A stretch of 64,000 nt of DNA from Peptococcaceae bacterium 1109 (GCA_001028815.1 LDJB01000004.1:147123-211122); one strand, 5' to 3'; counted from the first letter of the stretch, positions 970-35,977 are shown. Notes: a model not told the origin generated them from the sequence alone. A program made the numbers and translations.

Positions 970-4587
<3,618 letters not shown>

Positions 4588-4596
4588 GAACCCATG

Positions 4597-4626
4597 TAAA
4601 AAAAGCCCCCGCTCGGGGGCTTTTTG
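4597..4626. terminator. Bidirectional rho-independent terminator between nifJ and the convergent hydrolase gene
   Basis: aaaaaaAGCCCCCgctcGGGGGCTtttt: a GC-rich stem flanked by an A-run and a T-run. Confidence 0.8.
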
Positions 4627-4627
4627 C

Positions 4628-5113
4628 TTATGAAGCAAAGACGTGATCGCCGATCTGTAGTTTAACCTGCCTGGTCCAAACCCAACTTGTGGGGGGTACC
4701 TTCCGCGGATTCCAGAAAAACAGCGCTCCATCGGTAGGATCGTGCCCCGTCAAGGCCTCAAGCACCGCCTGATACGCTAGGTTGTTGGGGAGCATATTGA
4801 TACTGCCGTTCGCGACAACTTCAAACTGGCGAGGCTGGTAGATAACTCCCCACAGAGTATTGGGGAAATCAGGATGTTTCAGCCGGTTGAGGGCGACCGC
4901 GGCCACGGCTACCTGGCCCAAGTATGGCTCTCCCCGGGCCTCAGCGTGAACCAAGCGGGCAAGCAGTTTAATCTCTTCCAGCTGTTCCCCGGTGTACTCG
5001 TCCTCGGGCAGGACAAAGCCCCCGTCCACAGAGGGCAGCACTGGAGCTGATGACACTCTCTTCCCCCCTTCCATCCCAAGGCTGCATACCTGTGTTAAGA
5101 TATGCAGCGGCAC
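4628..5113 (-). CDS. Cell wall hydrolase, SleB/CwlJ family (Hydrolase_2); germination-type lytic enzyme
   Basis: LLARLVHAEARGEPYLGQVAVAAVALNRL...PNTLWGVIYQPRQFE is the SleB/CwlJ catalytic-domain signature. The start is uncertain. GTG 5113, ATG 5074 and GTG 5056 are candidates; only the last has a purine-rich SD-like run upstream. Confidence 0.8.
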   Translation of the reverse strand: MPLHILTQVCSLGMEGGKRVSSAPVLPSVDGGFVLPEDEYTGEQLEEIKLLARLVHAEARGEPYLGQVAVAAVALNRLKHPDFPNTLWGVIYQPRQFEVVANGSINMLPNNLAYQAVLEALTGHDPTDGALFFWNPRKVPPTSWVWTRQVKLQIGDHVFAS

Positions 5114-5149
5114 GATGGATGGGTATGGGCCCTCAGCCCCATCCCTCAG

Positions 5150-6370
5150 CTAAACGAATGGATCGGCCCAGCGGTCGTTAGGCAAGAGTGGATACCAGCC
5201 AGGGCGCCTTGAGTCCCGATCGTAGCAATAGGCGCCCAGCTCTTTATATAGTTCTGCGTATTCACCTAGGCGATCCCGGTCAAGGGTAACGCCAAGGCCG
5301 GGCCCATCGGGGACCTTAATCTGACCGTTCTCGTACTGCATCTTACCCCCCGCGATCACATCATCCCGCAGGTGGTGGTAATGGGCATCAATAGCCAAGG
5401 TAAGATTGGGCAAGACAGCTGCCAGGTGAAGCATGGTGCTAAGCTGAACTCCCAGCTCCCCAGAGGAGTGGACGGAGATGCCAAGCTGGAAGGTGTCGCA
5501 TATAGCTGCTGCTTTCACACAAGCCCTAATTCCGCCCCAGAACGTGGTGTCCAGGAGAATAACGTCAACAGCTGGGTGAAGGACGTTTTGGGCAAGTTGT
5601 TCGAAGTTGACCACCACCGTATTGGTTGCCAAGGGCACGGTTGTCTTCTCCCGCACTCTCCGCATGCCGTTAAGCCCCCAGGTAGGATCTTCCAGGTAAT
5701 CGTTGCGGATAGATTCTATTTGCTTAGCAAACCAGATGCTGTCTTCCACGCTCCAACAGGCATTGGGATCAATGCGGAAGCGATCCTGGGGAAACTCAGA
5801 GGCTAGTGCCTTGTACGCCTCCAGCTCATACTCCGGGGGGAAGACCCCGGCTTTCAGTTTGTGGGTGGCAAAGCCGTACCGTTTCTTAAGATCCCGGGTA
5901 TGTTCAACAAGCTGGTCAATGGTGCGCACTTCGGGGACCTTAAGATCATCGCTTTCGTAGCGGAAGAACAGGTAGCTAGCAAAGTTTATCTTGTCCCTAA
6001 GCTTTCCCCCGATCAGGTTATAAACGGGCTGCCCAAGCTTTTGGCCGATAATGTCAAGGCAGGCAAACTCGATGGCTGCCATATACTGCATGCGGTTATT
6101 GTACAGGCTTGCGGTGGGATTGCAGATCTTGTAGCGCAAGGCTTCCAGTTGAAAGGGATCATGGCCGACTAGGTAGTCTTTCAGCCGCCTAAACTGAAGC
6201 TCAGCGCCTTCGCCGCCGCCCCCAACTTCCCCCAGGCCAACAATACCCTCATCAGTCACCACCTCAACAATGGTCCGCACAAAGCGTCCCCAGTGCTCGC
6301 CATTGCTGTGCCTGAGAGGGGCTTCCAGGGGAACACTCACAGTGGTCGGTATGATATCTACAATTTTCAC
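5150..6370 (-). CDS. Enolase-superfamily dehydratase (mandelate racemase/muconate-lactonizing family, glucarate-dehydratase-like)
   Basis: 406 aa. N-terminal capping domain ([15 protein letters not shown]...GLGEVGGG), a barrel with FRIDPN, and a C-terminal HSSGELGV...[12 protein letters not shown] block resembling GudD-type acid-sugar dehydratases. Confidence 0.8.
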
Positions 6371-6382
6371 GCTGATCCCACC

Positions 6383-7063
6383 TTATGGATGTGCGAAATA
6401 TTCCGGAAAATCTCTCAGGAGCAGCTTCCGTTCCACAATCACCATGCGGAGATGTTCCTGCATGATCTGGGCTGCAACCTCGTGATTGCCCTCCTTAACC
6501 GCCTGGAGGACAGCTTTGTGCTGGGCGATAATTGTATCCCAGTCATAGTGGTGCGACAGGCGCAATACCCGCAGCCGGAAGAAATCGTTGTTCAGCTGGC
6601 TCACCATCTGCCACGTCCGTTCTTGTCCGGCGATGCGAAACAGAGTCGCATGGAAGCGCTCGTCTAAAGACAGCATCTGCAGGTAACTCTGGTTCTCATG
6701 GCAGACTTCCTGCTGGGCCAAGTTAGACTCTAAATGGACGATATCATCGCGGGTCAATTCCCCGCAAATCTCCCGCACAACGGCCATCTCCAAGACTTCC
6801 CGGACAAAGCGCCCTTCATCGACGTGGGCTAAGTTTATCAAGGAAACATAAGTACCCCGCTGGGGATAAATCTCCACCAACCCGTCCTGAAACAAACGGA
6901 CAAATACTTCACGCACTGGCGTGCGGCTCACCTGAAACCGTTCGGAGACTTCTTGCTCAGACATTTTCGTGCCCGGCTTGAGGACGAGGTGGAGGATGTC
7001 ATGCCTCAACTTTCTGTACACCATCTCCCGGGCTGAACTTCGGCTTGCATATGCTGCTTCCAC
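6383..7063 (-). CDS. GntR-family transcriptional regulator with FadR-type (FCD) C-terminal domain
   Basis: wHTH SEQEVSERFQVSRTPVREVFVRLFQDGLVEIYPQRGTYV followed by an all-helical FCD-like domain. The start may be ATG 7024 (MVYRKLRHDI) rather than GTG 7063. Confidence 0.85.
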   Translation of the reverse strand: MEAAYASRSSAREMVYRKLRHDILHLVLKPGTKMSEQEVSERFQVSRTPVREVFVRLFQDGLVEIYPQRGTYVSLINLAHVDEGRFVREVLEMAVVREICGELTRDDIVHLESNLAQQEVCHENQSYLQMLSLDERFHATLFRIAGQERTWQMVSQLNNDFFRLRVLRLSHHYDWDTIIAQHKAVLQAVKEGNHEVAAQIMQEHLRMVIVERKLLLRDFPEYFAHP

Positions 7064-7082
7064 TCAACTCGACTCCCTTTAC

Positions 7083-7096
7083 ACTACCATGGTAGT
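7083..7096. promoter_or_regulatory. Perfect 14-bp palindrome ACTACCATGGTAGT, candidate GntR/FadR-type operator
   Basis: Self-complementary. It contains the GT...AC half-site style of FadR-subfamily operators and lies just downstream of the -10 of the regulator's own promoter. Confidence 0.45.
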
Positions 7097-7104
7097 ATAC
7101 TGTA

Positions 7105-7133
7105 ATCATAACTAGCATTTAACTTAATGTCAA
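7105..7133 (-). promoter_or_regulatory. Sigma-A-type promoter for the GntR-dehydratase operon
   Basis: The minus strand reads TTGACA (7133-7128), a 17-nt spacer, then TATGAT (7110-7105). Confidence 0.5.
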
Positions 7134-7242
7134 CCCTCTTGTCTAAACCCTTACGGGAAATCTCCCCCGCGGTGGGCCGGCAGGAAGAGGAGAGTTCTTG
7201 TCAAAGATATATGGGTGATACCCCATACAAGGAGGAAAAGCG

Positions 7243-7953
7243 ATGCCTACACCGCATAATGCAGCCCAAGTAGGAGACATTGCCAAGACGGTCTTGATGC
7301 CTGGCGACCCTTTGCGGGCCAAGTTTATTGCTGAGAACTTCCTCGAGAATGTGAAATGCTACAACGAGATTCGCGGCATGCTGGGCTTTACCGGCGAGTA
7401 CAAGGGCGTCCCCGTTTCTGTCCAGGGCCACGGCATGGGTATGCCCTCCATCGGAATCTACACATACGAGCTTTTCAATATGTACGGAGTGGAGAACATC
7501 ATCCGGGTCGGATCCTGCGGTGCCATCGAACCTGGAGTAGAGATCATGGATCTGGTCTTCGCTCAAGGTGCCTGCACCGATTCAAACTACGCGGCCCAGT
7601 ACCGCCTGCCAGGCACCTACGCCCCTATTGCTAGCTTTGAGCTGTTAGAAAAAGCAGTGAACATCGCCAGGGAAAAGAATCACCGTTACTTCGTGGGCAA
7701 CGTCTTAGCATCTGATTTGTTCTACGCCGACCATAAGGCGACCCTGGATTGGCAGAAGATGGGCGTCTTGGCAGTGGAAATGGAAGCTGCTGCCCTTTAC
7801 ATGAATGCCGCTCGAGCCAAGAAGCGGGCCCTGTGCATCTTAACTGTTTCAGATGAGATCTACAGCGGCCGGGAGATCTCCGCCCACGAGCGCCAGGTCG
7901 GTTTTACCTCGATGATGGAAACGGCTTTGGAACTGGCGGTGCAAATCTCATAG
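7243..7953 (+). CDS. deoD: Purine nucleoside phosphorylase, DeoD type
   Basis: MPTPHNAAQVGDIAKTVLMPGDPLRAKFIAENFL...GFTGEYKGVPVSVQGHGMGMPS and VEMEAAALY motifs; 236 aa; SD AAGGAGG upstream. Confidence 0.9.
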   Translation: MPTPHNAAQVGDIAKTVLMPGDPLRAKFIAENFLENVKCYNEIRGMLGFTGEYKGVPVSVQGHGMGMPSIGIYTYELFNMYGVENIIRVGSCGAIEPGVEIMDLVFAQGACTDSNYAAQYRLPGTYAPIASFELLEKAVNIAREKNHRYFVGNVLASDLFYADHKATLDWQKMGVLAVEMEAAALYMNAARAKKRALCILTVSDEIYSGREISAHERQVGFTSMMETALELAVQIS

Positions 7954-12670: not shown

Positions 12671-13684
12671 CTAACTCCTTTTCCCCAACGAATGCAGGTA
12701 CATCAAAGGAGTGAGGTAAATCCGCTCCAGCATCTCTTTATCCCCCAGCTCGTGGAACAACCCTTTGTCAGGCTTGCCGTTCACTTCAATGATCCACGGT
12801 TTTCCCTGGGGATCCACGATAAAATCAACGCAGATTTCCCCTAGGCTCCCCAGGGAGCCATCAAGCTGGCGGGCAGCTAAGATGGCAAGCTTCCTCATGA
12901 GCTGGTGAATGGGCATGGCTCGCCCTTTGAAAACAGGCAAGACCTTCCGGGGATGATATAGAGCCCGATAGTAGTTAGTAGTAAAGACTCCTGGCGCAGT
13001 CACCCGGCTGAGCTCGCCTGCCACTTCCCACGCGCCGTGGCGGTTCTTCTGCACCACCAGGCGCACATCAAAACGCCCGCCTTCATAAAGCGCCCCTTCC
13101 ACATGGCTTTGCAGCACGTACGGCGTTTCGGCAATGGCGAGGTCCAAGAAGGCAGAGAAAAGCTCCCCTGAAGGAATGGGAAGGGGAATGCTCATACCGC
13201 TAGTTACCAGTACGAAATCGCCCGCCGGTTCCAGCAGGTAAACTCCCCGCCCCGATTGGCCTTTGCGGGGTTTGATCACCCACTTGCCCCCTTGAGCTAA
13301 CAACGATGTAACCTCTTGCCCGATGCAGGCCCGAGCCTCAGGCAAAAAGGGCCTCAGTGGTTCATTGCTATGGAGTAGCTCATGTACCTGGAGCTTGTCA
13401 AAGTGAGTAGTGGTATTGAACACCTTTCCTTTCCCCAGGGCCTCTTCCAACGCGGAGATTACTTCTCGCTGCCCAGGATAGCAGCGGTTGTACACCGCTC
13501 TTGGAAGGGGGTAGACCCCCTCATACCATCGTCCCCAGCTTAGAAGGAGCCCCGAGGCCCTTCTTGTTGTCCAGTCAATGGTGTTGGAAGCAAAGACCAG
13601 CAGGCGGAAGCCGTACTTGCGAGAGAGTTCTTGGTAGTAGGGGAGTCGCTGCGCTTGGTCCATTAGTAAGCCCATTAGAGCCAC
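12671..13684 (-). CDS. YheC/YheD-family ATP-grasp protein (spore-coat-associated family in Bacillus)
   Basis: LPLPRAVYNRC, WVIKPRKGQSGRGVYLL and WIIEVNGKPDKGLF resemble the ATPgrasp_YheCD family. The start is ambiguous (GTG 13684, ATG 13675 or ATG 13663). Confidence 0.75.
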   Translation of the reverse strand: MALMGLLMDQAQRLPYYQELSRKYGFRLLVFASNTIDWTTRRASGLLLSWGRWYEGVYPLPRAVYNRCYPGQREVISALEEALGKGKVFNTTTHFDKLQVHELLHSNEPLRPFLPEARACIGQEVTSLLAQGGKWVIKPRKGQSGRGVYLLEPAGDFVLVTSGMSIPLPIPSGELFSAFLDLAIAETPYVLQSHVEGALYEGGRFDVRLVVQKNRHGAWEVAGELSRVTAPGVFTTNYYRALYHPRKVLPVFKGRAMPIHQLMRKLAILAARQLDGSLGSLGEICVDFIVDPQGKPWIIEVNGKPDKGLFHELGDKEMLERIYLTPLMYLHSLGKRS

Positions 13685-26246: not shown

Positions 26247-26703
26247 ATACATAAATGCGTTCTACCTTGCAACGCAAGACGTCTTCAGGTTGATGCTGGA
26301 TTTGGAAACAACTCGCCTGGCCATGCGAGTCACAGAAGAACTAGTACCTTTCCGAGAGGCAAACGTAGTGATCGGGGTAACGGGAGACTTGGCTGGCTCC
26401 CTCCTCTACAGTTTCCCTAAGAACATGGCACTGGAAATGGTCCGAATCATGTCTGGTATGGAGATGACGGAGCTAGACGCCTTTGTCACCTCAGCCATGG
26501 GCGAACTCGCGAATATTATCAGCGGGAACGCCATGACCAGGCTCTTTGAGAGCAACTTCCGCTGTGACATTGTTCCTCCGCAGATTCTAATCGGGGGTGG
26601 CCAATCGTTGTCCATGGCAACTCCCCAAGCCATTGTCTTGCAGCTGCAGACAAGTATCGGAGCCTTTGAAGTCAGCATATCCCTGCGAACAGCTAAATCA
26701 TAG
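26236..26703 (+). CDS. cheX: CheX/CheC-family chemotaxis phosphatase-like protein
   Basis: MKAEYINAFYLATQDVFRLML, VIGVTGDLAGSLL and MGELANIISGNA. ATG 26236 with AAGGAGG upstream overlaps the hemerythrin gene by 11 nt. Confidence 0.75.
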   Translation: MKAEYINAFYLATQDVFRLMLDLETTRLAMRVTEELVPFREANVVIGVTGDLAGSLLYSFPKNMALEMVRIMSGMEMTELDAFVTSAMGELANIISGNAMTRLFESNFRCDIVPPQILIGGGQSLSMATPQAIVLQLQTSIGAFEVSISLRTAKS

Positions 26704-26712
26704 AAAGTGCCA

Positions 26713-26734
26713 GCCCACAGCTTCGGCTGTGGGC
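26713..26734. terminator. Hairpin between convergent cheX-like and barrel genes
   Basis: GCCCACAGC-ttcg-GCTGTGGGC. Confidence 0.6.
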
Positions 26735-26741
26735 ATTTCCA

Positions 26742-27920
26742 TTAAAACGACCCGTTCCCAAAGGTAAGGGCAGCATACACTTGAGTGGCCGTAGCTAGCG
26801 GACTGAACTGGTCCTGGCTATAGAAACGGCGAATCCCAACCTGGGGCTTGATCGACTTCACGCTGGGCAAACTGAGGCTGAAATCGAGGATGCCTGACCT
26901 ATCGGAAAGGGAGCCAATCCACATCCCTGCAGCAGAAAGCTTGGATTTCAGCAGGTTATTCCAGCTGAGCAAGGCAGCTGCCTGGTGTGTACCGCTGTAG
27001 AGATACTGGGCCGCAGTGGTAATGTCATACAAGCCTTCCTCATCCCTATAGCTATACCGGCCCCCCACCGTCCACTGCCACGATAACGGGCTCTCCTCTG
27101 AGCCTGCTTCCCTGTCCACAGTTACTACCCCTTCACCAAACACGCTTACCTCACCTATTGTTGACGAAACGGTTGCCATAAGGTGCAAAGGCCGATCTGC
27201 CCGGTAATAGCCGCCGAATCCTAGCTCTGTTTTCCCCACCACATACTCTGCCTTAGGGGCAATGGCAATATCCCCCAAGCCATCCATATCCTCGAAGAGC
27301 AGGTACAAGTAGTAGTTGTTACTCCCCACTGGGTAGTGGGCCTTGAGGGCAGTGGGCCCCTCCCGAGGCGCCTCTGCATCAAAGGGGTCGATCCGGCCCA
27401 CGTTGATCACATCTGCAGGGCTGAAGAAGTACCCCACGCCCCAGTTGATGGTTTGCTTCCCCGCTCTTAAATACAGCTTGTCCAGAAGAGTATAGTCCAA
27501 GAAAAGCTCATGGAGGGAGAAGTCCGCGGCCTCTGTAGACTTCCCTTCAGGCCAGCTCTCGTACCCGATATTCGCAGCGTACTTGCCTTTCACGAAGGCC
27601 CGCCAAGTGGGATCAGGCCGGAGGTCCATGTAGAGGTCACCGCTTAAACTAACAGCAAACTCATCCCTGGTCACATCCATGGGAAACGGAAAGGCAATCT
27701 GGCTGTACAGGCGGCTCCCGTTAACGTTCAGGCGGTAGGAACCCCCTAGATCGATAGGCTCACCAATGAGCACTGCCTCCACGGGGGAGCCGCCCTCAGG
27801 GCCTTCTTCCAGTTCCTGCAGGATTTCACCGCCAAACAAGAGGTCGAAATCAAAGTCATCAGCGGCTCCAGTCCCACTCAGAAGCACCAGCAGTGCTAAA
27901 ACCAAACAAAGACGCCCCAT
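26742..27920 (-). CDS. Secreted beta-rich protein, probable outer-membrane beta-barrel (DUF1302/alginate-export-like motif)
   Basis: ATG 27920 (GAGGGT upstream) gives the signal peptide MGRLCLVLALLVLLSGTGAADD. There are no hydrophobic helices, the composition is G/Y/S/aromatic-rich, and the motif LRAGKQTINWGVGYFFSPADVIN is present. The C-terminus is ...ALTFGNGSF (terminal Phe). Confidence 0.55.
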   Translation of the reverse strand: MGRLCLVLALLVLLSGTGAADDFDFDLLFGGEILQELEEGPEGGSPVEAVLIGEPIDLGGSYRLNVNGSRLYSQIAFPFPMDVTRDEFAVSLSGDLYMDLRPDPTWRAFVKGKYAANIGYESWPEGKSTEAADFSLHELFLDYTLLDKLYLRAGKQTINWGVGYFFSPADVINVGRIDPFDAEAPREGPTALKAHYPVGSNNYYLYLLFEDMDGLGDIAIAPKAEYVVGKTELGFGGYYRADRPLHLMATVSSTIGEVSVFGEGVVTVDREAGSEESPLSWQWTVGGRYSYRDEEGLYDITTAAQYLYSGTHQAAALLSWNNLLKSKLSAAGMWIGSLSDRSGILDFSLSLPSVKSIKPQVGIRRFYSQDQFSPLATATQVYAALTFGNGSF

Positions 27921-27930
27921 ATTTACCCTC

Positions 27931-28692
27931 CTAGCGGTTTGCCCGTTCCAAGAACGCCTTGGTAAAGACATTATCAGGGAGCTTGGCTGTGGAAATCTCT
28001 GAAAGGGAAATTTGAGTCTTCTTCCCTTCCACAAGCTCATCGATGAAAATCATCTGGGTGGGGATCACTCCGTCCCCCACCTTAGTGTAGCTTGGGAACA
28101 GCCCTGAACGCATCAGCCGCTTGTTGAGGCTGAATTCTTGTGTGCGTAGGACCAGGTTACTGTCTTTGGTGATCCAGAGCTTCGCATAGGGGTATGGTAC
28201 GGTGTCATCCACCGCCTCCAAATCCACTACATAAACGGAGAAGTTCCCCAGGACATCCTCGGTATAATCCACAACCTTGTACGACGAGGAGTAGCTCCAT
28301 TGGCTGAAGTCTGCATTGCGGGCATCGGTGCCCTGGAAGCTCTCCTTTAGGGAAGTGTGGGCAAACTTCCTGCTGGAGGGGTCATAAAACCAGAGGTTGT
28401 CTCCCTCCAAGAGGTACCCCTGGCCCCGCTGAGTGCGGGGCTCCTCAATGAGAAGGAGGAAGCGCTCTCCATCATCCCGGCGGAAATGGCGCACCACAAT
28501 TTTCTCCAAACCTTCCTCTGGATCTTCGATGATCATGGTCAAAACCGCGGACAGGTCAGTCTCTGGAAACGAGGACTGTTCGTCCACTTTCCGCAAGATA
28601 TCTTCAATGATGCTCATGTCTTTCTCCGCTGCTGCGGCCGTCCAACAGCAGGCCAAAATCAGCAGGACAAGCAATGCTTTGTGCTTCCGCAT
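27931..28692 (-). CDS. LolA-like outer-membrane lipoprotein-sorting family protein (secreted, possibly lipidated)
   Basis: Signal peptide MRKHKALLVLLILACC. LLIEEPRTQRGQGYLLEGDNLWFYDPSSRKFAHTSLKESFQGTDARNADF matches my memory of the LolA_like family. Confidence 0.75.
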   Translation of the reverse strand: MRKHKALLVLLILACCWTAAAAEKDMSIIEDILRKVDEQSSFPETDLSAVLTMIIEDPEEGLEKIVVRHFRRDDGERFLLLIEEPRTQRGQGYLLEGDNLWFYDPSSRKFAHTSLKESFQGTDARNADFSQWSYSSSYKVVDYTEDVLGNFSVYVVDLEAVDDTVPYPYAKLWITKDSNLVLRTQEFSLNKRLMRSGLFPSYTKVGDGVIPTQMIFIDELVEGKKTQISLSEISTAKLPDNVFTKAFLERANR

Positions 28693-28705
28693 AGGTTCTC
28701 TCTCC

Positions 28706-30049
28706 TTATAAATTGCTGCTCATGGCCTTAACTGGCGACAACTTCGCGGCAGCCTTGGCAGGGAAATAGGCTGCCAAAAGACCCATGGCCAAAATCAAGC
28801 TAGTGTTGAAAGTGATCTCCCGGAACGAGGCGGTAAAGGTAATGCGGCCCTGGTCCAGGAAGAACTGCATGGCAGGTACCGTATCCCAGGAGATCCTTCC
28901 GAGGATGAAGGCCGCCAATCCATAGGCGATCAGCCCCGCCAAGGCACCGCCTGCACTCAGAAGCAAAGCTTCCATGAGGAACACATTCCGCACTACACCC
29001 CGCTGCATCCCAAAGGCCCTCATGGTGCCGATCTCCTTGGTGCGCTCGATCATGATCATCCGGAATGTGTTGGTAATGCCCACCATAGTAATCACCAGGA
29101 GAATAATGAATATGGCTAGGCCAATGGTCTTCAAGGCATTTACCGCTGCCTCCACTGGCTCCATGATCTGGTTGATGGTGGTCACCTGATACTTTATCCC
29201 TTCCCAAGGTTCCACCTCGGAAGCCCGGGTAAACCCAAACATAGCTGCCATTGCCTCTTCATCATCCATGTCCTGCACCTCTGCAAGGCGCTTTGGCTCC
29301 GGCACGCCTAGGGCTGCTCTAAAGCTCTGACCCAAAGCATCAGCCTGTTCCATGTCAGTGAGAAAGAGGTTCAGGGCCTGGTAATCCTCTAGCCCTAAGC
29401 CTACGAGGGTGTTAAGGTATCCCCTGTTCACGTAGGCAGCGGAAATGCCGTAGCGCTCCTGGTCTTCGATGAGGGCAACTACTACAAACTCGCCCACGTT
29501 GCGCTGGCCTGTGACCGTATCCAGGCGCATCAAGATCGTCTCTCCCGCCTCCACCCCAAGGCGCTCCGCCACCGAGCGGGGGAGAATTATAAGCTGCTCG
29601 TTGGTTACGTCTTTTAGCGAACCCCCGGTCACAACTAAGCTCCCCAGGAGTTTGTCCTCCTGCTGAAAATCCACGCCGTAGACCAGCTGCATTGCCTGGC
29701 GTGACCCAAAGATGAGGCTGGGCATGGCCTGCGAGCGGCGGGTCACCGCTGCGATGGACTCGCCATTCTGCTGTAAGGCCGTTAGGAGCTTCTCGTCATC
29801 GGCTATACGATAAACAATGGTCCCCCGGTCCAAGTATTCACTGCCAGAGATAAAGACGTGGCCCCCCAGGGCATGGGAGAAGTTGACTCGGATGTTGTCT
29901 ACCACTCCGCCAGTGAGGCCGTTAATGGCTGTAATCACAAACATTCCAAAAGCAATGGCCCCAGCCAAGAGGAAACTGCGCTTCTTCTGCCGCCACACAT
30001 TGCGGGCAGATATCTTCAGAATGACTCCGATCATCCCCATCCTCCTCAC
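28706..30049 (-). CDS. ABC transporter permease, FtsX/MacB-LolC/E type (paralog 2)
   Basis: N-terminal TM (ARNVWRQKKRS), a large extracytoplasmic domain and a C-terminal FtsX block (ERTKEIGTMRAFGMQ). The start could be ATG 30034, which has better SD spacing. Confidence 0.85.
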   Translation of the reverse strand: MRRMGMIGVILKISARNVWRQKKRSFLLAGAIAFGMFVITAINGLTGGVVDNIRVNFSHALGGHVFISGSEYLDRGTIVYRIADDEKLLTALQQNGESIAAVTRRSQAMPSLIFGSRQAMQLVYGVDFQQEDKLLGSLVVTGGSLKDVTNEQLIILPRSVAERLGVEAGETILMRLDTVTGQRNVGEFVVVALIEDQERYGISAAYVNRGYLNTLVGLGLEDYQALNLFLTDMEQADALGQSFRAALGVPEPKRLAEVQDMDDEEAMAAMFGFTRASEVEPWEGIKYQVTTINQIMEPVEAAVNALKTIGLAIFIILLVITMVGITNTFRMIMIERTKEIGTMRAFGMQRGVVRNVFLMEALLLSAGGALAGLIAYGLAAFILGRISWDTVPAMQFFLDQGRITFTASFREITFNTSLILAMGLLAAYFPAKAAAKLSPVKAMSSNL

Positions 30050-31521
30050 TCACTCTGCATTGCCTTCACGGGCGGCATCTTCATGACAATGGACGCAGGA
30101 TAGGAACTTGCCACAACTCCCACCACAAAAACAACGGCCAGTGCCATGACTACCGACGACAGGGAAAGCTCAGGCCTGAGTACGGGGCCCCCAAAGATTA
30201 TCTCAAAGAACATATTGCTCGCTTCGATACCCACCACATTCAAGGCTGCCAAGATGGCCCCCCCGATACTAAGGCCAACGGCCCCCGCGATCCCTGTGAG
30301 GAGCAAGGTTTCACAGAGGACCATTTTCCAAACAAAGCTCTTCTGGGCGCCAATGGCCCGCATGGTGCCGATCTCTGCTGTCCGCTCCGTAACCGAGATG
30401 ACCAAGGTGTTCATGATGATAATCACTGCTACCACTGCGATGACTGCCACAATTCCATTGAAGATGTTCTTAATGCCGTAACCGAGCTCCGCTGTGACCC
30501 CCGCACCCTGCAGCCAGTTACTGGTCTGAGCAGGGATGCCCTGTTGTTCAAAGAACGCGGCCAGATCCGCTTGGGCACGCCCCAGATAGCGCTCATCAGT
30601 GAGGCGAATAATGAGGAAATGCCACGCGCCTGTATCCTCTTGGCAATCAGAGGCGGGTGCCGGTTCGGGCTCTAGTGTCACAAACAGGTCCTCAATATTT
30701 AGAACTTGCTCTGAACTGGACTCTTCGAAGAGGCTGTCCAGGCCAGTGAAGAGGCTGTCGATGTCCAGCTCCCCTAAGAAAGCCTGTTCCCGCTCGGTGA
30801 GCTCAGCGGCATCAGTATGCCCCACAACCAGCCCAGCCAAATCCCGGGCGTTATCTGCATCGAGGAGTGAAACCATATCCAGCTGCGGGTTAGATTGGAG
30901 AAAGCGGAAGATACCGGACACAGGTACTTCTCTGATGCGCATCCCAGTCTGGACGCTCACGCCCGTAAGGAGAATCTTGTCACCGGGCTGGATGGTTATC
31001 CCCTGGCGGCTTTCGATGCGCTCAACCAAGCGCTGGCTCAAGAGGACGCCTTCCTCCCCAGGCTGAAAGAAATCCCCTGCCAGAAGCTCAATGTTCTCCG
31101 GAAACATGTTGCGGTACTGCACAGGGTCAATTCCGAAGAGCTGGGTGACTCCCAGTGTTTCATCCCCCATGCCTACCAGTGCCCCAGCGGTAATCTGGGG
31201 GTTTACCCCTTCCACATAGGGCAGCGAACGAACATACTCCAGAACCTCTTGGTAGTCGGGAATGTGCGGTACGGACCGCTCCATTGCGGTGAGGTCTTGG
31301 AATCCGAATAATGTGAGGCGCCCGGGATGCTTGCCGGTGATGATCAGATGACCGGTATAGTTCCGGGTGTAAGACCGCTCAATGCCTGCTGTGGCGCTAT
31401 CCATGAGAGAGTTGCCCACTACCAGCACCACAATGCCAACCACCATAATGATTCCCACAATCAGGGTCTTGATTTTCTGCTTGCGAAGATTGCGCCAGGC
31501 GATGCGGAGAAGAATCCTCAT
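30046..31521 (-). CDS. ABC transporter permease, FtsX/MacB-LolC/E type (paralog 1)
   Basis: [13 protein letters not shown]-terminus, a large loop with an acidic insert, and an FtsX block ([15 protein letters not shown]). ATGA overlap with the ATPase gene. Confidence 0.85.
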
Positions 31522-32237
31522 GACATCGCCTCCGTATCCCGGTCCGCTTTCTGGTACACTTCCTCCACAATGGTGCCGTCTAAGAGGCGGATGACATGGT
31601 CAGTGAGGCCCACAATGGAGGAATCATGGGTGGAGAAAATGAAAGTGGTGTTCAGTTCAGCGTTCATTTTCTTCATCAGCTCTAGAATACTCTGTCCTGT
31701 CTTGGAGTCAAGGTTAGCGGTGGGCTCATCAGCTAAGACAATGGCTGGGCGAGTCACCAAAGCCCGGGCAATAGCCACCCGCTGCCGCTGTCCCCCTGAA
31801 AGCTCATTGGGCCGATGGTGGATATGGTCGTGCAGGCCCACCTGTTCTATTAGATAACTAATCCAGTCCCGCACCTCACCTTTGGGTACGGATGTCTTCC
31901 CCAGAAGTAAGGGGAACTCAATGTTCTCATAGACGTTCAGCACGGGGATGAGGTTGAACGACTGGAAGATGAAGCCTAGAGTTTGGTGCCGCAGAGTGGT
32001 GAGCTGCCGATCGCTCATCCCGCTTGTGGCAGTCCCGTTGATGCGTACGACGCCGCTGTTAGGCTGATCAATGCAGCCAATCAGGTTGAGAATGGTAGAT
32101 TTGCCCGACCCAGAGGGGCCGATGATGGATGCAAACTCTCCAGAGGCGATCTCGAAGCTGACACCTTTGACCGCGTGTACCTCGGTTTTCCCTAAAGTGT
32201 AGATCTTATGTACATCCGCAAGCTCGATAATAGCCAT
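31518..32237 (-). CDS. ABC transporter ATP-binding protein, LolD/MacB type
   Basis: Walker [25 protein letters not shown] and Walker B VLADEPT; 239 aa. Confidence 0.9.
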
Positions 32238-32346
32238 GCAATGACCTCCAAACTGTACCGATATTTAAAGGATACCCCAACGGCACTAGTTGTACAAGGG
32301 ATGGTAAATGCCAGTGGAGAAATGCCTACTAAAGGAGTGGTGAACT

Positions 32347-33675
32347 GTGTGCGATACTTTTGTAGCCTTGGGTAGTGCCACGGCCCATGGCGGAGTAATC
32401 TTCGCCAAAAACAGCGACCGTCAGCCAAATGAGCCCCACCTCTTGATCCGCATCCCTAGGCGGAAACATCCCCCTGGGACCAAGCTGAGATGCACCTATA
32501 TTGAAATCGAACAAGCCCGGGAAACGTATGAGGTTTTCCTCCTAAAGCCTTCGTGGATGTGGGGCGCAGAAATGGGTGGCAATGAGTTCGGCCTTCAAAT
32601 CGGGAACGAGGCGGTTTTTACAAAAGAAAAGCAAGGCCCGCCCGCTCTCCTAGGGATGGACATGCTCCGCCTAGCCCTAGAGCGCTGCCGCACCAGTGAA
32701 GAAGCCCTGCATTTCATCATTGAGCTTCTGGAAAAATACGGCCAAGGGGGCAACTGCGGTTACGCCAAGCCCTTCTACTACCACAATGCGTTCCTCATCG
32801 CCGATCCCCGCTCCGCGTGGGTGCTAGAGACAGCGGGGAAGTATTGGGCCGCGCAGCAGGTGAGCGATGTCAAAGCTATATCCAATCGTTTGAGCATCGG
32901 GGCAGACTTTGACCTTGCCCATCCAGGCCTGGTAAGGAATGCGGTGGAAAAGGGATGGTGCCGCTCCGAAGCGGACTTTGACTTTGCAAAGTGCTACTCA
33001 AATCCAGTTGTTACAGCGGCCAGCGGCTCGTTCCATCGCCAGCAGGCAGCAGAGCAAGTGCTGCGCCATAATAAGGGTCGCATCACTGTAGAACTGGCCA
33101 TGGCAATTCTCCGAAGCCACACACCCCGCCATCAGAAGGACCCCTTTGCCCACAGTTCCCTTGGCTCCGTATGCATGCATGGCGGCTTCCTCTTTGGAGA
33201 TCACACTACCGGAAGTTATGTGGCCTCTGTAGCAGAAGGCCAGGTAACGTACTGGGCCACAGGCAGTTCCACTCCCTGCATCGCAGTGTTTAAGCCCTAC
33301 TGGCTCACTGATGCCCCTAATGGCATGGTATTCCCGGAAGCACAGGCCCAAGATTCTTTGTCCTTCTGGATGTTCCGGGAGCGCTTCCACCGGGCTGTCC
33401 TGGAAAACCGCATACCCAATCTGCAACACTACTTGGGAGAACGGGATGCTCTAGAGAAGGAATCCCTGCAAAGGGCCGCGGGGAGCATAGAAGCAGGTGC
33501 GGATGCACTAGTGGATCTTATGAACTACGCAGTAGAAAAAGAAACAGCACTGGTAACCAAAGCCCTGGCGGAGGCGGAGCCAAGGCCCGGCAAACTGCGG
33601 GGTAACCCCTACTTCCGCTGGTACTGGAAGAATCAAACCCGGAAGCTCCTGACTACTCCCCCTCGCCTTGCATGA
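32347..33675 (+). CDS. Ntn-hydrolase, peptidase C69 / secernin-like family
   Basis: GTG start followed directly by Cys (M)CDTFVALGSATAHGGVIFAKNSDRQPNEP, the N-terminal nucleophile arrangement of C69 dipeptidases. Confidence 0.75.
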   Translation: MCDTFVALGSATAHGGVIFAKNSDRQPNEPHLLIRIPRRKHPPGTKLRCTYIEIEQARETYEVFLLKPSWMWGAEMGGNEFGLQIGNEAVFTKEKQGPPALLGMDMLRLALERCRTSEEALHFIIELLEKYGQGGNCGYAKPFYYHNAFLIADPRSAWVLETAGKYWAAQQVSDVKAISNRLSIGADFDLAHPGLVRNAVEKGWCRSEADFDFAKCYSNPVVTAASGSFHRQQAAEQVLRHNKGRITVELAMAILRSHTPRHQKDPFAHSSLGSVCMHGGFLFGDHTTGSYVASVAEGQVTYWATGSSTPCIAVFKPYWLTDAPNGMVFPEAQAQDSLSFWMFRERFHRAVLENRIPNLQHYLGERDALEKESLQRAAGSIEAGADALVDLMNYAVEKETALVTKALAEAEPRPGKLRGNPYFRWYWKNQTRKLLTTPPRLA

Positions 33676-33989: not shown

Positions 33990-34011
33990 AAATACAATAC
34001 AGATCGACTCT

Positions 34012-34240
34012 AAGTGCGATGATGAGGAAGAGTAATCACAGGCTAGCTGACAGAGAAGGGAAGCCAGTGGCTGAAAGCTTCCCCCAGAGGAGCGGTGATG
34101 AAAACCACCTCGGAGCTGCCCGCTGAAAGTGGAGTAAGCGTGGCCGGGGCACCGTTATCTGCATTGAGTGGGCTGCTTAGGCAGCCAATTTGGGTGGAAC
34201 CACGGCAACCTCGTCCCAAGATTTGGGGCGAGGTTTTTTG
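34012..34240 (+). ncRNA. T-box riboswitch leader, threonine specifier (ACC)
   Basis: Stem I GA/K-turn start GCGATGATGAGGAAGAGTA, AGAGA box (34051-34055), specifier-loop GAAAACCA with ACC at 34104-34106 followed by A, and T-box core AATTTGGGTGGAACCACGG (34187-34205). The terminator is CCTCGTCCC-aagattt-GGGGCGAGG + TTTTTT (34209-34239). Confidence 0.85.
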
Positions 34241-34267
34241 CATTCCCTACTGGAAGGAGTTAGAATT

Positions 34268-35977
34268 ATGCAGCGTGAAGAAGCATTGCGGCATACCGCC
34301 GCCCACGTGATGGCCCAAGCAGTAATGCGCCTATGGCCCGATGTAAAGCTGGCCATCGGCCCAGCCATCAAGAACGGTTTCTATTATGATTTTGACCTGG
34401 AGCACCGCCTAACCAGCGACGACTTGGCCCGCATCGAAGCAGAAATGAAAAACATCGCAGCAGAGGGATTCCCCCTTATCCGCGAGGAACTGTCCAAACA
34501 AGAAGCGATAGAGCTGTTTTCCCGTATGAACCAACCGTATAAACTGGAGCTTCTGGAGGAACTGCCTGAAGAGGTTTCTGTATATCGCCAAGGGGAGTTT
34601 GTAGACCTCTGTCAAGGCCCCCATGTGGGGAGCACCGCTGAAGTAAAGCACTTCAAGCTCCAGAGCGTCGCAGGGGCGTACTGGCGAGGGGACTCCTCAA
34701 GGCCCATGCTCCAGCGCATTTACGGCACTGCCTTTGACAGCAAAGAAGAGCTTAAGGATCATCTCAGGCTTCTAGAAGAAGCGGCGAAGCGGGATCACCG
34801 CAAGCTAGGAAAGGAGCTTGACCTGTTTAGCATCCAAGATGAAGGCCCTGGCTTTCCCTTCTTTCACCCCAAAGGCATGGTGATCCGAAACACCCTAGAG
34901 GATTTCTGGCGGGCAGAACACGTAAAGCGGGGCTACCAAGAGGTTAAGACCCCTATCATGCTCCACGAAGACCTGTGGCACCGTTCTGGGCACTGGGACA
35001 ACTATCGGGAAAACATGTACTTCTCCGAAATCGACGAACAGCGCTTTGCCATCAAACCCATGAACTGCCCTGGGGGAATGCTCCTCTATAAGCGTAAGCT
35101 CCATTCCTACCGAGACCTGCCCCTGCGCGTGGGCGAGCTGGGCTTAGTGCACCGCCACGAACTCTCTGGTGCGCTCCACGGGTTGATGCGGGTTAGATGC
35201 TTCACCCAAGATGATGCCCACATCTTTATGCTCCCCAGTCAGATTCAGGCGGAGATCGAAGGGGTTATCGATTTTATCCACGCGGTGTACACCGATGTCT
35301 TCGGATTCCCTTACCACGTGGAGCTGTCCACGAAACCAGAGAATGCCATTGGCGATGATCTCATGTGGGAAAAAGCAACACAGGCCTTGAAAGATGCCCT
35401 GGAAGCCAAAGGCCTGCCCTACGTGATCAACGAAGGGGATGGGGCTTTTTACGGGCCTAAGATCGACTTCCACTTAGAAGACAGTATCGGCCGGACCTGG
35501 CAGTGCGGCACCATCCAACTGGATTTTGCAATGCCCGAGCGCTTTGACCTCACCTATATCGACGAAGACGGCCAGCGCCGCCGCCCGGTCATGCTCCACC
35601 GCGTGATCTTCGGAAGCATTGAAAGGTTCATCGGCATTCTCACCGAACACTACGCAGGGGCATTCCCCGCCTGGCTCGCACCTGTGCAGGTTATGGTGAT
35701 CCCTGTTAGCGATGGGCAGTCGGAATATGCACGAGAGCTCGAGCGAGCGCTCCTGCAAAAAGGCCTACGGGCGGAGAGCGATCTGCGCTCAGAGTCGGTG
35801 GGCAAGAAGATTCGCGCTGCGCAGCTCCAAAAGGTCCCCTATATGGTGATCGTAGGCGAACGGGAGCAGCAAGAAGGAACCATCAGCGTCCGCCACCGCA
35901 AGAGGGGCGACCTAGGTAGTACCAGCCTAGAAACCTTCAGCTCAGAGCTCCAAAAGGAGATCGCTGACCGCCGTTGA
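34268..35977 (+). CDS. thrS: Threonine--tRNA ligase, short form lacking the N-terminal TGS domain
   Basis: Starts at the editing-domain motif ALRHTAAHVMAQAV. Class II motifs are FRAEHVKRGY, RVRCFTQDDAHIF and GAFYGPKIDF, with an anticodon-binding C-terminus. ATG 34268 follows the T-box terminator. Confidence 0.9.
   Translation: MQREEALRHTAAHVMAQAVMRLWPDVKLAIGPAIKNGFYYDFDLEHRLTSDDLARIEAEMKNIAAEGFPLIREELSKQEAIELFSRMNQPYKLELLEELPEEVSVYRQGEFVDLCQGPHVGSTAEVKHFKLQSVAGAYWRGDSSRPMLQRIYGTAFDSKEELKDHLRLLEEAAKRDHRKLGKELDLFSIQDEGPGFPFFHPKGMVIRNTLEDFWRAEHVKRGYQEVKTPIMLHEDLWHRSGHWDNYRENMYFSEIDEQRFAIKPMNCPGGMLLYKRKLHSYRDLPLRVGELGLVHRHELSGALHGLMRVRCFTQDDAHIFMLPSQIQAEIEGVIDFIHAVYTDVFGFPYHVELSTKPENAIGDDLMWEKATQALKDALEAKGLPYVINEGDGAFYGPKIDFHLEDSIGRTWQCGTIQLDFAMPERFDLTYIDEDGQRRRPVMLHRVIFGSIERFIGILTEHYAGAFPAWLAPVQVMVIPVSDGQSEYARELERALLQKGLRAESDLRSESVGKKIRAAQLQKVPYMVIVGEREQQEGTISVRHRKRGDLGSTSLETFSSELQKEIADRR

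Follow-up and report, generated by a model that had tools for sequence, protein, structure and literature searches.

The LolCDE-LolA-LolB pathway of Escherichia coli and other Gracilicutes combines one ATP-binding cassette (ABC) ATPase and two paralogous four-helix type VII permeases with a soluble carrier of the LolA/LolB superfamily and a dedicated outer-membrane acceptor, and it operates in the outward direction. Lol is practically absent from Terrabacteria, and no Lol homologues were found in Veillonella parvula (10.1101/2021.05.31.446380; PMC10665443), which agrees with the remark, in an earlier note on the DNA studied here, that the canonical pathway had been reported missing in diderm Firmicutes. 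In the 64,000-nucleotide stretch of Peptococcaceae bacterium 1109 that we analyzed (LDJB01000004.1:147123-211122; hereafter the window), a five-gene operon on the minus strand, at positions 26742-32237, encodes a comparable set of parts. The Lol acceptor is the lipoprotein LolB, whereas the gene that follows the carrier here encodes a predicted integral 18-stranded barrel with a signal-peptidase-I leader; unlike in Lol, a single operon includes the acceptor gene. The joining of a type VII ABC transporter and a LolA-fold carrier to a dedicated, previously unnamed barrel family appears to be new. A full-text literature search (PF17131, TP0789, LolA-like/DUF1302, Limnochordia with Lol, and FtsX sorting) returned no description of the five-gene module.

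Several other described systems share parts of this arrangement. In the DUF1302/DUF1329/RND/BNR cluster (Shewanella Sama_1588-1591; Pseudomonas putida PP_0765/0766), for which export of a cell-envelope constituent has been proposed (10.1101/072470; 10.1101/2020.07.04.188060), a barrel, a LolA/LolB-fold protein and an inner-membrane exporter likewise occur together, and the barrel shares an R-x-G-K/R…G-V…F-x-P-x-D loop motif with the operon barrel. That DUF1302 barrels pair with LolB-like DUF1329 proteins in Proteobacteria, as the earlier note stated, is documented (10.1101/072470). However, that cluster uses an RND pump, DUF1329 and a BNR-repeat protein, whereas the operon has an FtsX/MacB-type ABC transporter, a PF17131 carrier and no BNR-repeat protein; DUF1329, COG1033 RND exporter and BNR-repeat domains were all missing from the operon and its flanks. 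Barrels of the operon family are also only about 390-450 aa long, compared with the 541 positions of the DUF1302 profile. The BBJ23-BBJ29 cluster of Borrelia, proposed in 2026 on computational grounds only, likewise links an ABC transporter of type VII, a LolA-like protein and a barrel to a non-polar ligand (PMC13078400). Its MacB-like ABC transporter has a single homodimeric permease, it includes extra chaperone genes besides the LolA-like BBJ28, and its barrel BBJ25 is Omp85/BamA-like, whereas the operon barrel is predicted to be 18-stranded and porin-like; the seven-gene Borrelia cluster is confined to plasmids (PMC13078400). BBJ28 was considered as a close relative of the window carrier, which was not borne out: when the carrier was compared with the plasmid collection by tblastn, no match came from Borrelia.

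MacAB-TolC has the same permease fold, PF12704 core domain and mechanotransmission, and is frequently under two-component regulation (PMC5985334). It works with an adaptor and a continuous TolC duct, whereas the operon encodes a free carrier and a monomer-type barrel. Since the operon has neither an open reading frame (ORF) for a membrane-fusion adaptor of the MacA/HlyD type nor a TolC-type duct, it is not a MacAB-TolC system. The aryl-polyene genes (the RND exporter ApeM, LolA-like ApeL and LolB-like ApeN) likewise employ a LolA-fold protein for a specialized lipid (10.1101/2020.12.19.423268), but they have an RND energizer, a LolB-like acceptor and no barrel, and the window has no biosynthetic genes nearby. 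YbbAP-TesA of E. coli has a hydrolase as partner and lacks an outer-membrane part, where the operon has a carrier and a barrel.

The five ORFs are close-set and run in the same direction. The ABC ATPase gene (31518-32237, 239 aa) comes first, with a GGAGG ribosome-binding site (RBS) 8 nt upstream, and is followed by the genes for permease A (30046-31521, 491 aa), permease B (28706-30034, 442 aa), the LolA-like carrier (27931-28692, 253 aa) and the barrel (26742-27920, 392 aa from an internal ATG of a 432-aa ORF). The ATGA at 31518-31521 serves both as stop of the ATPase gene and as start of the permease A gene, a 13-nt gap with an AGGAGA RBS separates permease B from the carrier, and a 10-nt gap with a GGAGGG RBS separates the carrier from the barrel. 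Our reading of the sequence reproduced the coordinates, the strand and these three junctions as they had been given before. The only observation that needed correction is a 4-nt overlap between the permease genes at 30046-30049, which depends on an unlikely GTG start at 30049 (447 aa, the longest ORF). We placed the permease B start at ATG 30034 because a GGAGG site lies 6-7 nt before it and the public gene call on an identical contig is 442 aa, and an 11-nt gap is the likelier junction.

Scanning one genome per species, we obtained 204 loci with a gene for a barrel relative, the best 80 of which were analyzed by tblastn with the five proteins. All five genes were present in 54 of these 80 loci, and in every one of the 54 complete loci they run on one strand from ATPase through permease A, permease B and carrier to barrel. 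The remaining 26 were mostly cut by contig ends and included a few spirochaete loci with the barrel alone or the carrier and barrel. The five genes are not chance ORFs, because each has hundreds of homologues and their order is conserved across phyla. The overlap and the 10-13-nt gaps with their RBSs, together with the collinearity of all complete loci, indicate one functional unit, and the claim that the genes form a conserved module is thus upheld.

The hosts comprise Limnochordia-type Bacillota, many Spirochaetota and a single member of the Trueperaceae, with metagenome-assembled genomes (MAGs) as the sources of the complete loci. The module is not confined to diderm Firmicutes, being at least as common in Spirochaetota. 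Several genomes under the label Limnochordia, UBA 'Firmicutes' genomes and Candidatus Darwinibacter, a member of the Limnochordia order DTU010 in GTDB (PMC12663870), are among the Bacillota; flanking genes of the DTU010 loci recur at loci labelled 'Clostridiaceae' or 'Clostridia'. Among the best 80 of the 204 loci we saw no host that clearly has a single membrane. One candidate, a 'Bacilli bacterium' (L068), was dropped as evidence for a monoderm host because its downstream genes are shared with a Sphaerochaetaceae contig. In a rough neighbour-joining tree of carrier and barrel, calculated without bootstrap, all Bacillota copies form one clade. The Trueperaceae MAG (L066, JAHEBB010000132.1, a contig labelled Deinococcota) has a complete cluster that nests among the spirochaete copies, which suggests horizontal transfer or mis-binning. 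Spirochaete barrel copies that lack their partners are flanked by pantothenate genes or by a PRTase-CE/ORC-CDC6-like island. For example, the Spirochaetia MAG OZ244929.1 carries at 2232-7833 (L055) a second carrier and barrel copy without ABC genes, with genes matching PRTase-CE and ORC-CDC6-like upstream that resemble an inserted defence island, and it retains a complete copy elsewhere (L070).

Pfam assigned the ATPase to ABC_tran (PF00005; 4e-33, 115 bits), and it is 65-88% identical to its counterparts in related loci. Its best NCBIfam model is LolD (TIGR02211), with 236.7 bits against a cut-off of 307.75, and the DarD, DevA, FtsE and MacB models follow nearly equally at 196-206 bits. The description of the protein as a LolD/MacB-type ATPase therefore holds for the ABC domain and for LolD as the top-ranked model, but not for membership in LolD. 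The expectation of two paralogous permeases with a single FtsX domain was confirmed by hidden Markov model searches. Permease A matched FtsX (PF02687) at 2e-18 (residues 357-484) and MacB_PCD (PF12704) at 1.6e-8 (residues 24-207), and permease B matched the same domains at 1.5e-16 and 4.5e-8; the corresponding scores are 67.1 and 61.0 bits for FtsX (cut-off 25.5) and 35.5 and 34.1 bits for MacB_PCD (cut-off 27). As with LolD for the ATPase, lolCE (TIGR02212) ranks first among NCBIfam models for both permeases, at 62.2 and 72.4 bits against 362.45 and mostly over the C-terminal FtsX domain.

Permease A has an N-terminal transmembrane (TM) helix, a large extracytoplasmic domain and a C-terminal FtsX three-helix domain. 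The two permeases are about 30% identical in the transmembrane domain only, and we regard them as old paralogues. Surveying the PDB with permease A returned similar matches, with E-values of 1e-10 to 1e-7 and over the transmembrane domain only, to 5XU1, MacB, LolF, YtrF and LolE. The top match, 5XU1, is annotated merely as an ABC transporter permease, and we take it to be a pneumococcal MacAB-like transporter; MacB is close behind. For permease B, YtrF, MacB and LolE/F are equally distant. An FtsX four-helix permease, a large extracytoplasmic domain after TM1 and an ABC ATPase, the features that define type VII ABC systems, are all present. Judged by their sequences, the ATPase and permeases belong to this superfamily, and no characterized subfamily is assignable. 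Type VII systems have no transmembrane pore; ATP moves their periplasmic domains, and LolCDE, MacB and YbbAP extract or expel molecules at the outer face of the inner membrane or in the periplasm (PMC5985334; PMC12646458). Permease A also contains an acidic low-complexity insertion in its extracytoplasmic part, at approximately residues 235-300 (window 30620-30820), that permease B lacks. A repeated D/E-x-LF pattern in this insertion resembles the N-terminal DLLFG motif of the barrel.

The carrier matched PF17131 (LolA_like, now named TP_0789-like) at 2.2e-39 over residues 76-250, with 135.5 bits against a gathering score of 30, and it matched the PDB entry 3BUU, 'LolA superfamily protein NE2245', at 6e-22 over residues 29-250. 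At E≤0.1 the Pfam search did not return the LolA family (PF03548), and the only match besides PF17131 was a weak one to MucB_RseB. Its leader is of the signal-peptidase-I type (…TAAAA/EKD), which bears out the prediction of a secreted LolA-like protein. Because AxA-type signal-peptidase-I sites and the absence of a lipobox were found throughout about 55 carrier homologues from related loci, the carrier is predicted to be free and soluble in the periplasm.

An AlphaFold2 model of the 392-aa protein, built from a 67-sequence alignment, has 18 β-strands, with a predicted local distance difference test (pLDDT) of 88.9 and a predicted TM-score of 0.80. Each of the 50 listed Foldseek matches (of 881 at E≤10) either is an outer-membrane barrel or includes one in its entry, and MOMP, OmpM1, OccK, AlgE and chitoporin are among them. 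Matches to outer-membrane barrels have E-values of about 1e-9. Query TM-scores were 0.34-0.56, and approximately 0.5 for 18-stranded types. TolC is not among the 50 listed matches, which are porin-type. The model further combines a leader, an even number of strands and a C-terminal aromatic β-signal, the features expected of an outer-membrane barrel; the C-terminal Phe had been noticed before and recurs in 62 of 72 homologues. The protein is thus confidently modelled as an 18-stranded outer-membrane β-barrel, and the structure check favors a secreted barrel, as first supposed, over a soluble fold.

By sequence, the barrel had been linked to DUF1302 (PF06980) through a short motif. This link was recovered in part: a match over residues 116-193 (profile positions 124-202) includes the motif, but it covers only 78 of the 541 profile positions and its 22.2 bits lie below the cut-off of 23.2. 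DUF1302 matched 24 of 67 members of the barrel family at E<0.01, with a best value of 2e-6. The family is a distant relative of DUF1302 by way of a conserved loop, and not a member. No NCBIfam model matched the barrel, and its sequence profile found no solved structure in the PDB. An exhaustive profile search collected 616 clusters (50% identity) at E<1e-30 and 2116 at E<1e-3, and the family is so far without a name. Conservation in the family is highest in a 34-residue stretch, not part of any strand, between strands 5 and 6 (RAGKQTINWGVGYFFSPADVIN…), and in the 67-sequence alignment invariant residues cluster at 152-189 (R152, G154, K155, W160-G163, S167, P168 … P189). In outer-membrane proteins the N-terminus is as a rule periplasmic, and in classical porins loop 3 constricts the channel. 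The segment between strands 5 and 6 is probably extracellular loop 3, folding into the lumen. Directly after the signal peptide, residues 21-42 (window 27795-27860) carry a conserved acidic D-F-D-F-D-x-LFG motif with an invariant Phe29; this stretch is modelled as disordered, with pLDDT <50. Possibly the carrier or the permease docks on this peptide in the periplasm.

Taken together, the LolD and LolC/E cut-offs are not reached, the carrier falls outside the LolA family and a barrel stands in the place of LolB. For these reasons the operon, on sequence grounds, is not a canonical Lol system; 'Lol-like' describes an analogy and not membership, which failed on every point at which it was tested. 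The surveys that reported no Lol relied on LolCDE profiles and on the classical model of LolA (10.1101/2021.05.31.446380; PMC10665443), searches that an operon of this kind would escape.

Outside the Bacillota, the module or parts of it occur in settings that bear on its function. Of the spirochaete loci with enough downstream sequence, 20 of 40 have genes for a response regulator of the OmpR type and a HAMP/HisKA histidine kinase after the barrel gene, on the same strand and with gaps of 3-60 nt, whereas such a two-component system follows in none of the 24 Bacillota loci, nor in the window. Examples of the resulting seven-gene unit are L021 (regulator and kinase at 4114-6317), L025, L033, L037, L040 and L063. 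A plasmid of Aliiroseovarius crassostreae (L088, NZ_CP080787.1, 3677-10302) carries genes for an ATPase, a single FtsX permease and a PF17131 protein, followed by a 480-aa hypothetical protein (LRLGRINLRNGVAIGFNPTDW), a response regulator and a histidine kinase; this cassette is probably a distant one-permease version of the module. On a plasmid of Enterobacter bugandensis (L090, NZ_CP110986.1, 1-11114), genes for an ABC ATPase and a permease, for PF17131 and for a hypothetical protein of 462 aa (MGKLKPKPGLFFLRSPADLV) sit between β-ketoacyl synthase genes and an ACP S-malonyltransferase gene, a ketosynthase cluster comparable to the aryl-polyene genes. The cassette, on a clinical IncFII plasmid, looks like a means of exporting a lipid of polyketide or fatty-acid origin. 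Over approximately 290 columns the two hypothetical proteins can be aligned, with weak statistics, to the barrel family, and they carry the loop motif.

PF17131 also occurs beside MMPL/RND exporters in Haliovirga. In Treponema pallidum the RND gene TP0790 is, by gene numbering, near TP0789, and LptC/A/B are encoded by TP0784-0786 (PMC8407342). We considered this locus as an instance of the same module and rejected it because of these neighbours. Since PF17131 proteins are seen beside two-component systems, a ketosynthase cluster and MMPL/RND exporters, they look like interchangeable adaptors that connect an inner-membrane exporter to the outer membrane for differing hydrophobic cargoes.

We propose that the operon is an outward, ATP-driven, envelope-spanning route for hydrophobic or lipid-anchored cargo, and give this reading a probability of roughly 0.6. 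The heterodimeric permease would extract a lipidic cargo from the inner membrane at the expense of ATP and pass it to the soluble PF17131 carrier in the periplasm. The loaded carrier would then traverse the periplasm and dock on the 18-stranded outer-membrane barrel, which would either insert the cargo in the outer membrane or hand it to the surface. The analysis shows the domain identities, a soluble carrier, a barrel fold in the model and a module conserved across phyla; how the cargo is physically passed on, which way it moves and what it is are inferred. A lipidic class of cargo is indicated by extraction of the type VII ABC kind, by the Enterobacter cassette with its ketosynthase and malonyl-transferase genes, and by the association of PF17131 with MMPL/RND exporters. 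If the mechanism is as proposed, our tentative first choice of cargo, at somewhat less than even odds, is an endogenous molecule other than a protein: an envelope lipid, a glycolipid or a hydrophobic metabolite. Exogenous or toxic amphiphiles that are expelled from the cell are possible though doubtful, lipoproteins are rather unlikely, and only a small chance is left for anything else.

Several points weigh against this proposal. The Limnochordia flanks (CheX, hemerythrin, prolyl isomerase, an Opp transporter, GH130 and thrS) offer no hint of a cargo. The positions of the barrel loop, plug and gate were judged from secondary structure and not from the model coordinates. The proteobacterial 'barrels' reach an hhalign probability of only 10-14% against the family (for the Aliiroseovarius protein, E 0.002 and 14%), and because these profile scores are weak, their homology is suggested by loop motif and gene order but not proven. 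The route also presupposes an outer membrane; because no BamA, Lpt or OmpM genes lie within the 64-kb window, the diderm status that we assume for the source genome rests on its relatives and the literature. Finally, P. putida DUF1302/DUF1329 mutants do not grow on Tween 20 or butyl stearate (10.1101/2020.07.04.188060), which leaves room for a role of that related system in uptake or processing.

The alternative nearest in mechanism is inducible detoxification, in which the same physical steps would serve defence: the ABC transporter would clear exogenous amphiphiles, such as antimicrobial peptides or lipopeptides, free fatty acids or bile-like detergents, from the inner membrane or periplasm, and the carrier and barrel would replace MacA and TolC. 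Type VII ABC transporters coupled to two-component systems are classic resistance modules, as in BceAB-RS and in MacAB under PhoPQ (PMC5985334), and a regulator and kinase stand behind the barrel gene in 20 of the 40 spirochaete loci and likewise end the Aliiroseovarius cassette. These genes are nevertheless missing from all 24 Bacillota loci and from the window, and the kinase of the spirochaetes has an ordinary sensor domain in the periplasm, whereas Bce-type kinases are intramembrane sensors. The rank of 5XU1 as best PDB match of permease A, with MacB next, also fits detoxification, but the permeases are no nearer to MacB or 5XU1 than to LolE/F, and a closed hydrophobic cavity of the LolA type is better suited to acyl chains than to bulk efflux. 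We consider detoxification unlikely, though worth keeping in view. The coupling of half of the spirochaete copies to a two-component system argues in turn for an inducible function over housekeeping sorting of lipoproteins. Such sorting, by a divergent Lol system in which a β-barrel replaces LolB as acceptor or insertase, would account for the top rank of the LolD and lolCE models, the paralogous permeases that parallel LolC/LolE and the LolA/LolB-superfamily carrier, and a similar proposal has been made for Borrelia BBJ23-29 (PMC13078400). However, the scores for the Lol equivalogs are far under their cut-offs, the carrier is PF17131 and not LolA, and the distribution is patchy. The module is also frequent in Spirochaetota, whose studied members, Borrelia and Treponema, have canonical LolCDE-LolA (PMC13078400), a comparison across the phylum rather than within the same genomes. 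Together with the biosynthetic-cluster setting found elsewhere, the two-component coupling suggests varied, non-housekeeping cargoes, and lipoprotein sorting appears improbable.

Two further explanations were weighed. Were the system to run inward, the barrel would admit hydrophobic nutrients, the carrier would ferry them and the ABC transporter would take them into or through the inner membrane. The growth defect of the P. putida mutants on fatty esters (10.1101/2020.07.04.188060) would fit, and the barrel resembles the substrate-specific channels OccK and chitoporin. However, the cluster has no linked gene for a substrate-binding protein or for catabolism, and we know of no importer among type VII ABC systems. 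Given that the reviewed systems with the MacB fold act outward or as mechanotransmitters (PMC5985334; PMC12646458), uptake seems very improbable. The barrel might instead be an ordinary porin beside an unrelated ABC/LolA-like system, since its fold matches include general porins and a few spirochaete loci have a barrel homologue minus the other four genes. Against this stand the order and strand kept with short spacers in all 54 complete loci from three phyla, and a pattern of conservation that is strongest in one internal loop and an N-terminal periplasmic motif, which are not general porin features; we give the ordinary-porin explanation almost no credence.

If the proposed outward route is correct, the operon is a concrete, conserved candidate for the hydrophobic supply of the outer membrane in diderm Terrabacteria. 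It brings to light an unnamed barrel family of about 600 clusters (50% identity) locked to a LolA-fold carrier, and a free carrier with a dedicated barrel would raise to five the kinds of partner known for type VII ABC transporters. It is a more daring and, in our view, improbable extension that the operon represents a second delivery route to the outer membrane for lipid-anchored molecules (lipoproteins or structural lipid), one that ends in a barrel, evolved independently of LolB and is the main such route in Limnochordia. At least one diderm lineage of Terrabacteria would then have carrier-based sorting, contrary to the picture of absent Lol-type trafficking. If the cargo were lipoproteins, Limnochordia would possess lipoproteins in the outer membrane, which other diderm Firmicutes apparently lack. 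The module is present in many spirochaete MAGs, and a cultivable carrier of it, if found, could permit experiments.

The source of the window is supported as a relative of Limnochordia MAGs, a diderm class of Firmicutes. The window proteins are identical on the NCBI contig JBMNKR010000002.1, and a 'Limnochordia bacterium' MAG has a fully syntenic region with 66-88% identity. Limnochordia isolates have an outer membrane by electron microscopy, and all 46 UBA Limnochordia genomes of Taib and colleagues contain outer-membrane marker genes (PMC11456536), which matches the diderm Bacillota-type source first suggested for this DNA. Indirectly, the barrel gene too speaks for an outer membrane. Immediately upstream of the gene for threonyl-tRNA synthetase (34190-35977) is a T-box leader at 34010-34221 (plus strand; 121 bits against a gathering score of 93), which, as a typical Firmicute form of regulation, supports the taxonomic assignment. 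The window also encodes a SleB-type cell-wall hydrolase (PF07486; 4628-5113, minus strand) and a YheC/D-type ATP-grasp protein (12671-13684, minus strand), families that are known mainly from spore-forming Firmicutes; both fit the passing remark in the earlier note that the genome is a sporulating one.

At its 3' end the operon is bounded by a GC-rich hairpin of 9 bp at 26713-26734, between the barrel gene and a convergent CheX-like gene, which a terminator scan identified and which is likely a bidirectional terminator. The RNA fold of 26700-26760 has an energy of -22.2 kcal/mol (z = -2.5). At the other end, 109 nt upstream of the ATPase gene (32238-32346) presumably hold the operon promoter, and a consensus scan of these 109 nt found no site of the sigma-70 type. 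The same 109 nt serve as the upstream region of a divergent gene on the plus strand (32347-33675, 442 aa), whose homologue in a related MAG has a weak match to Peptidase_C69. This divergent neighbour is kept in 7 Bacillota loci.

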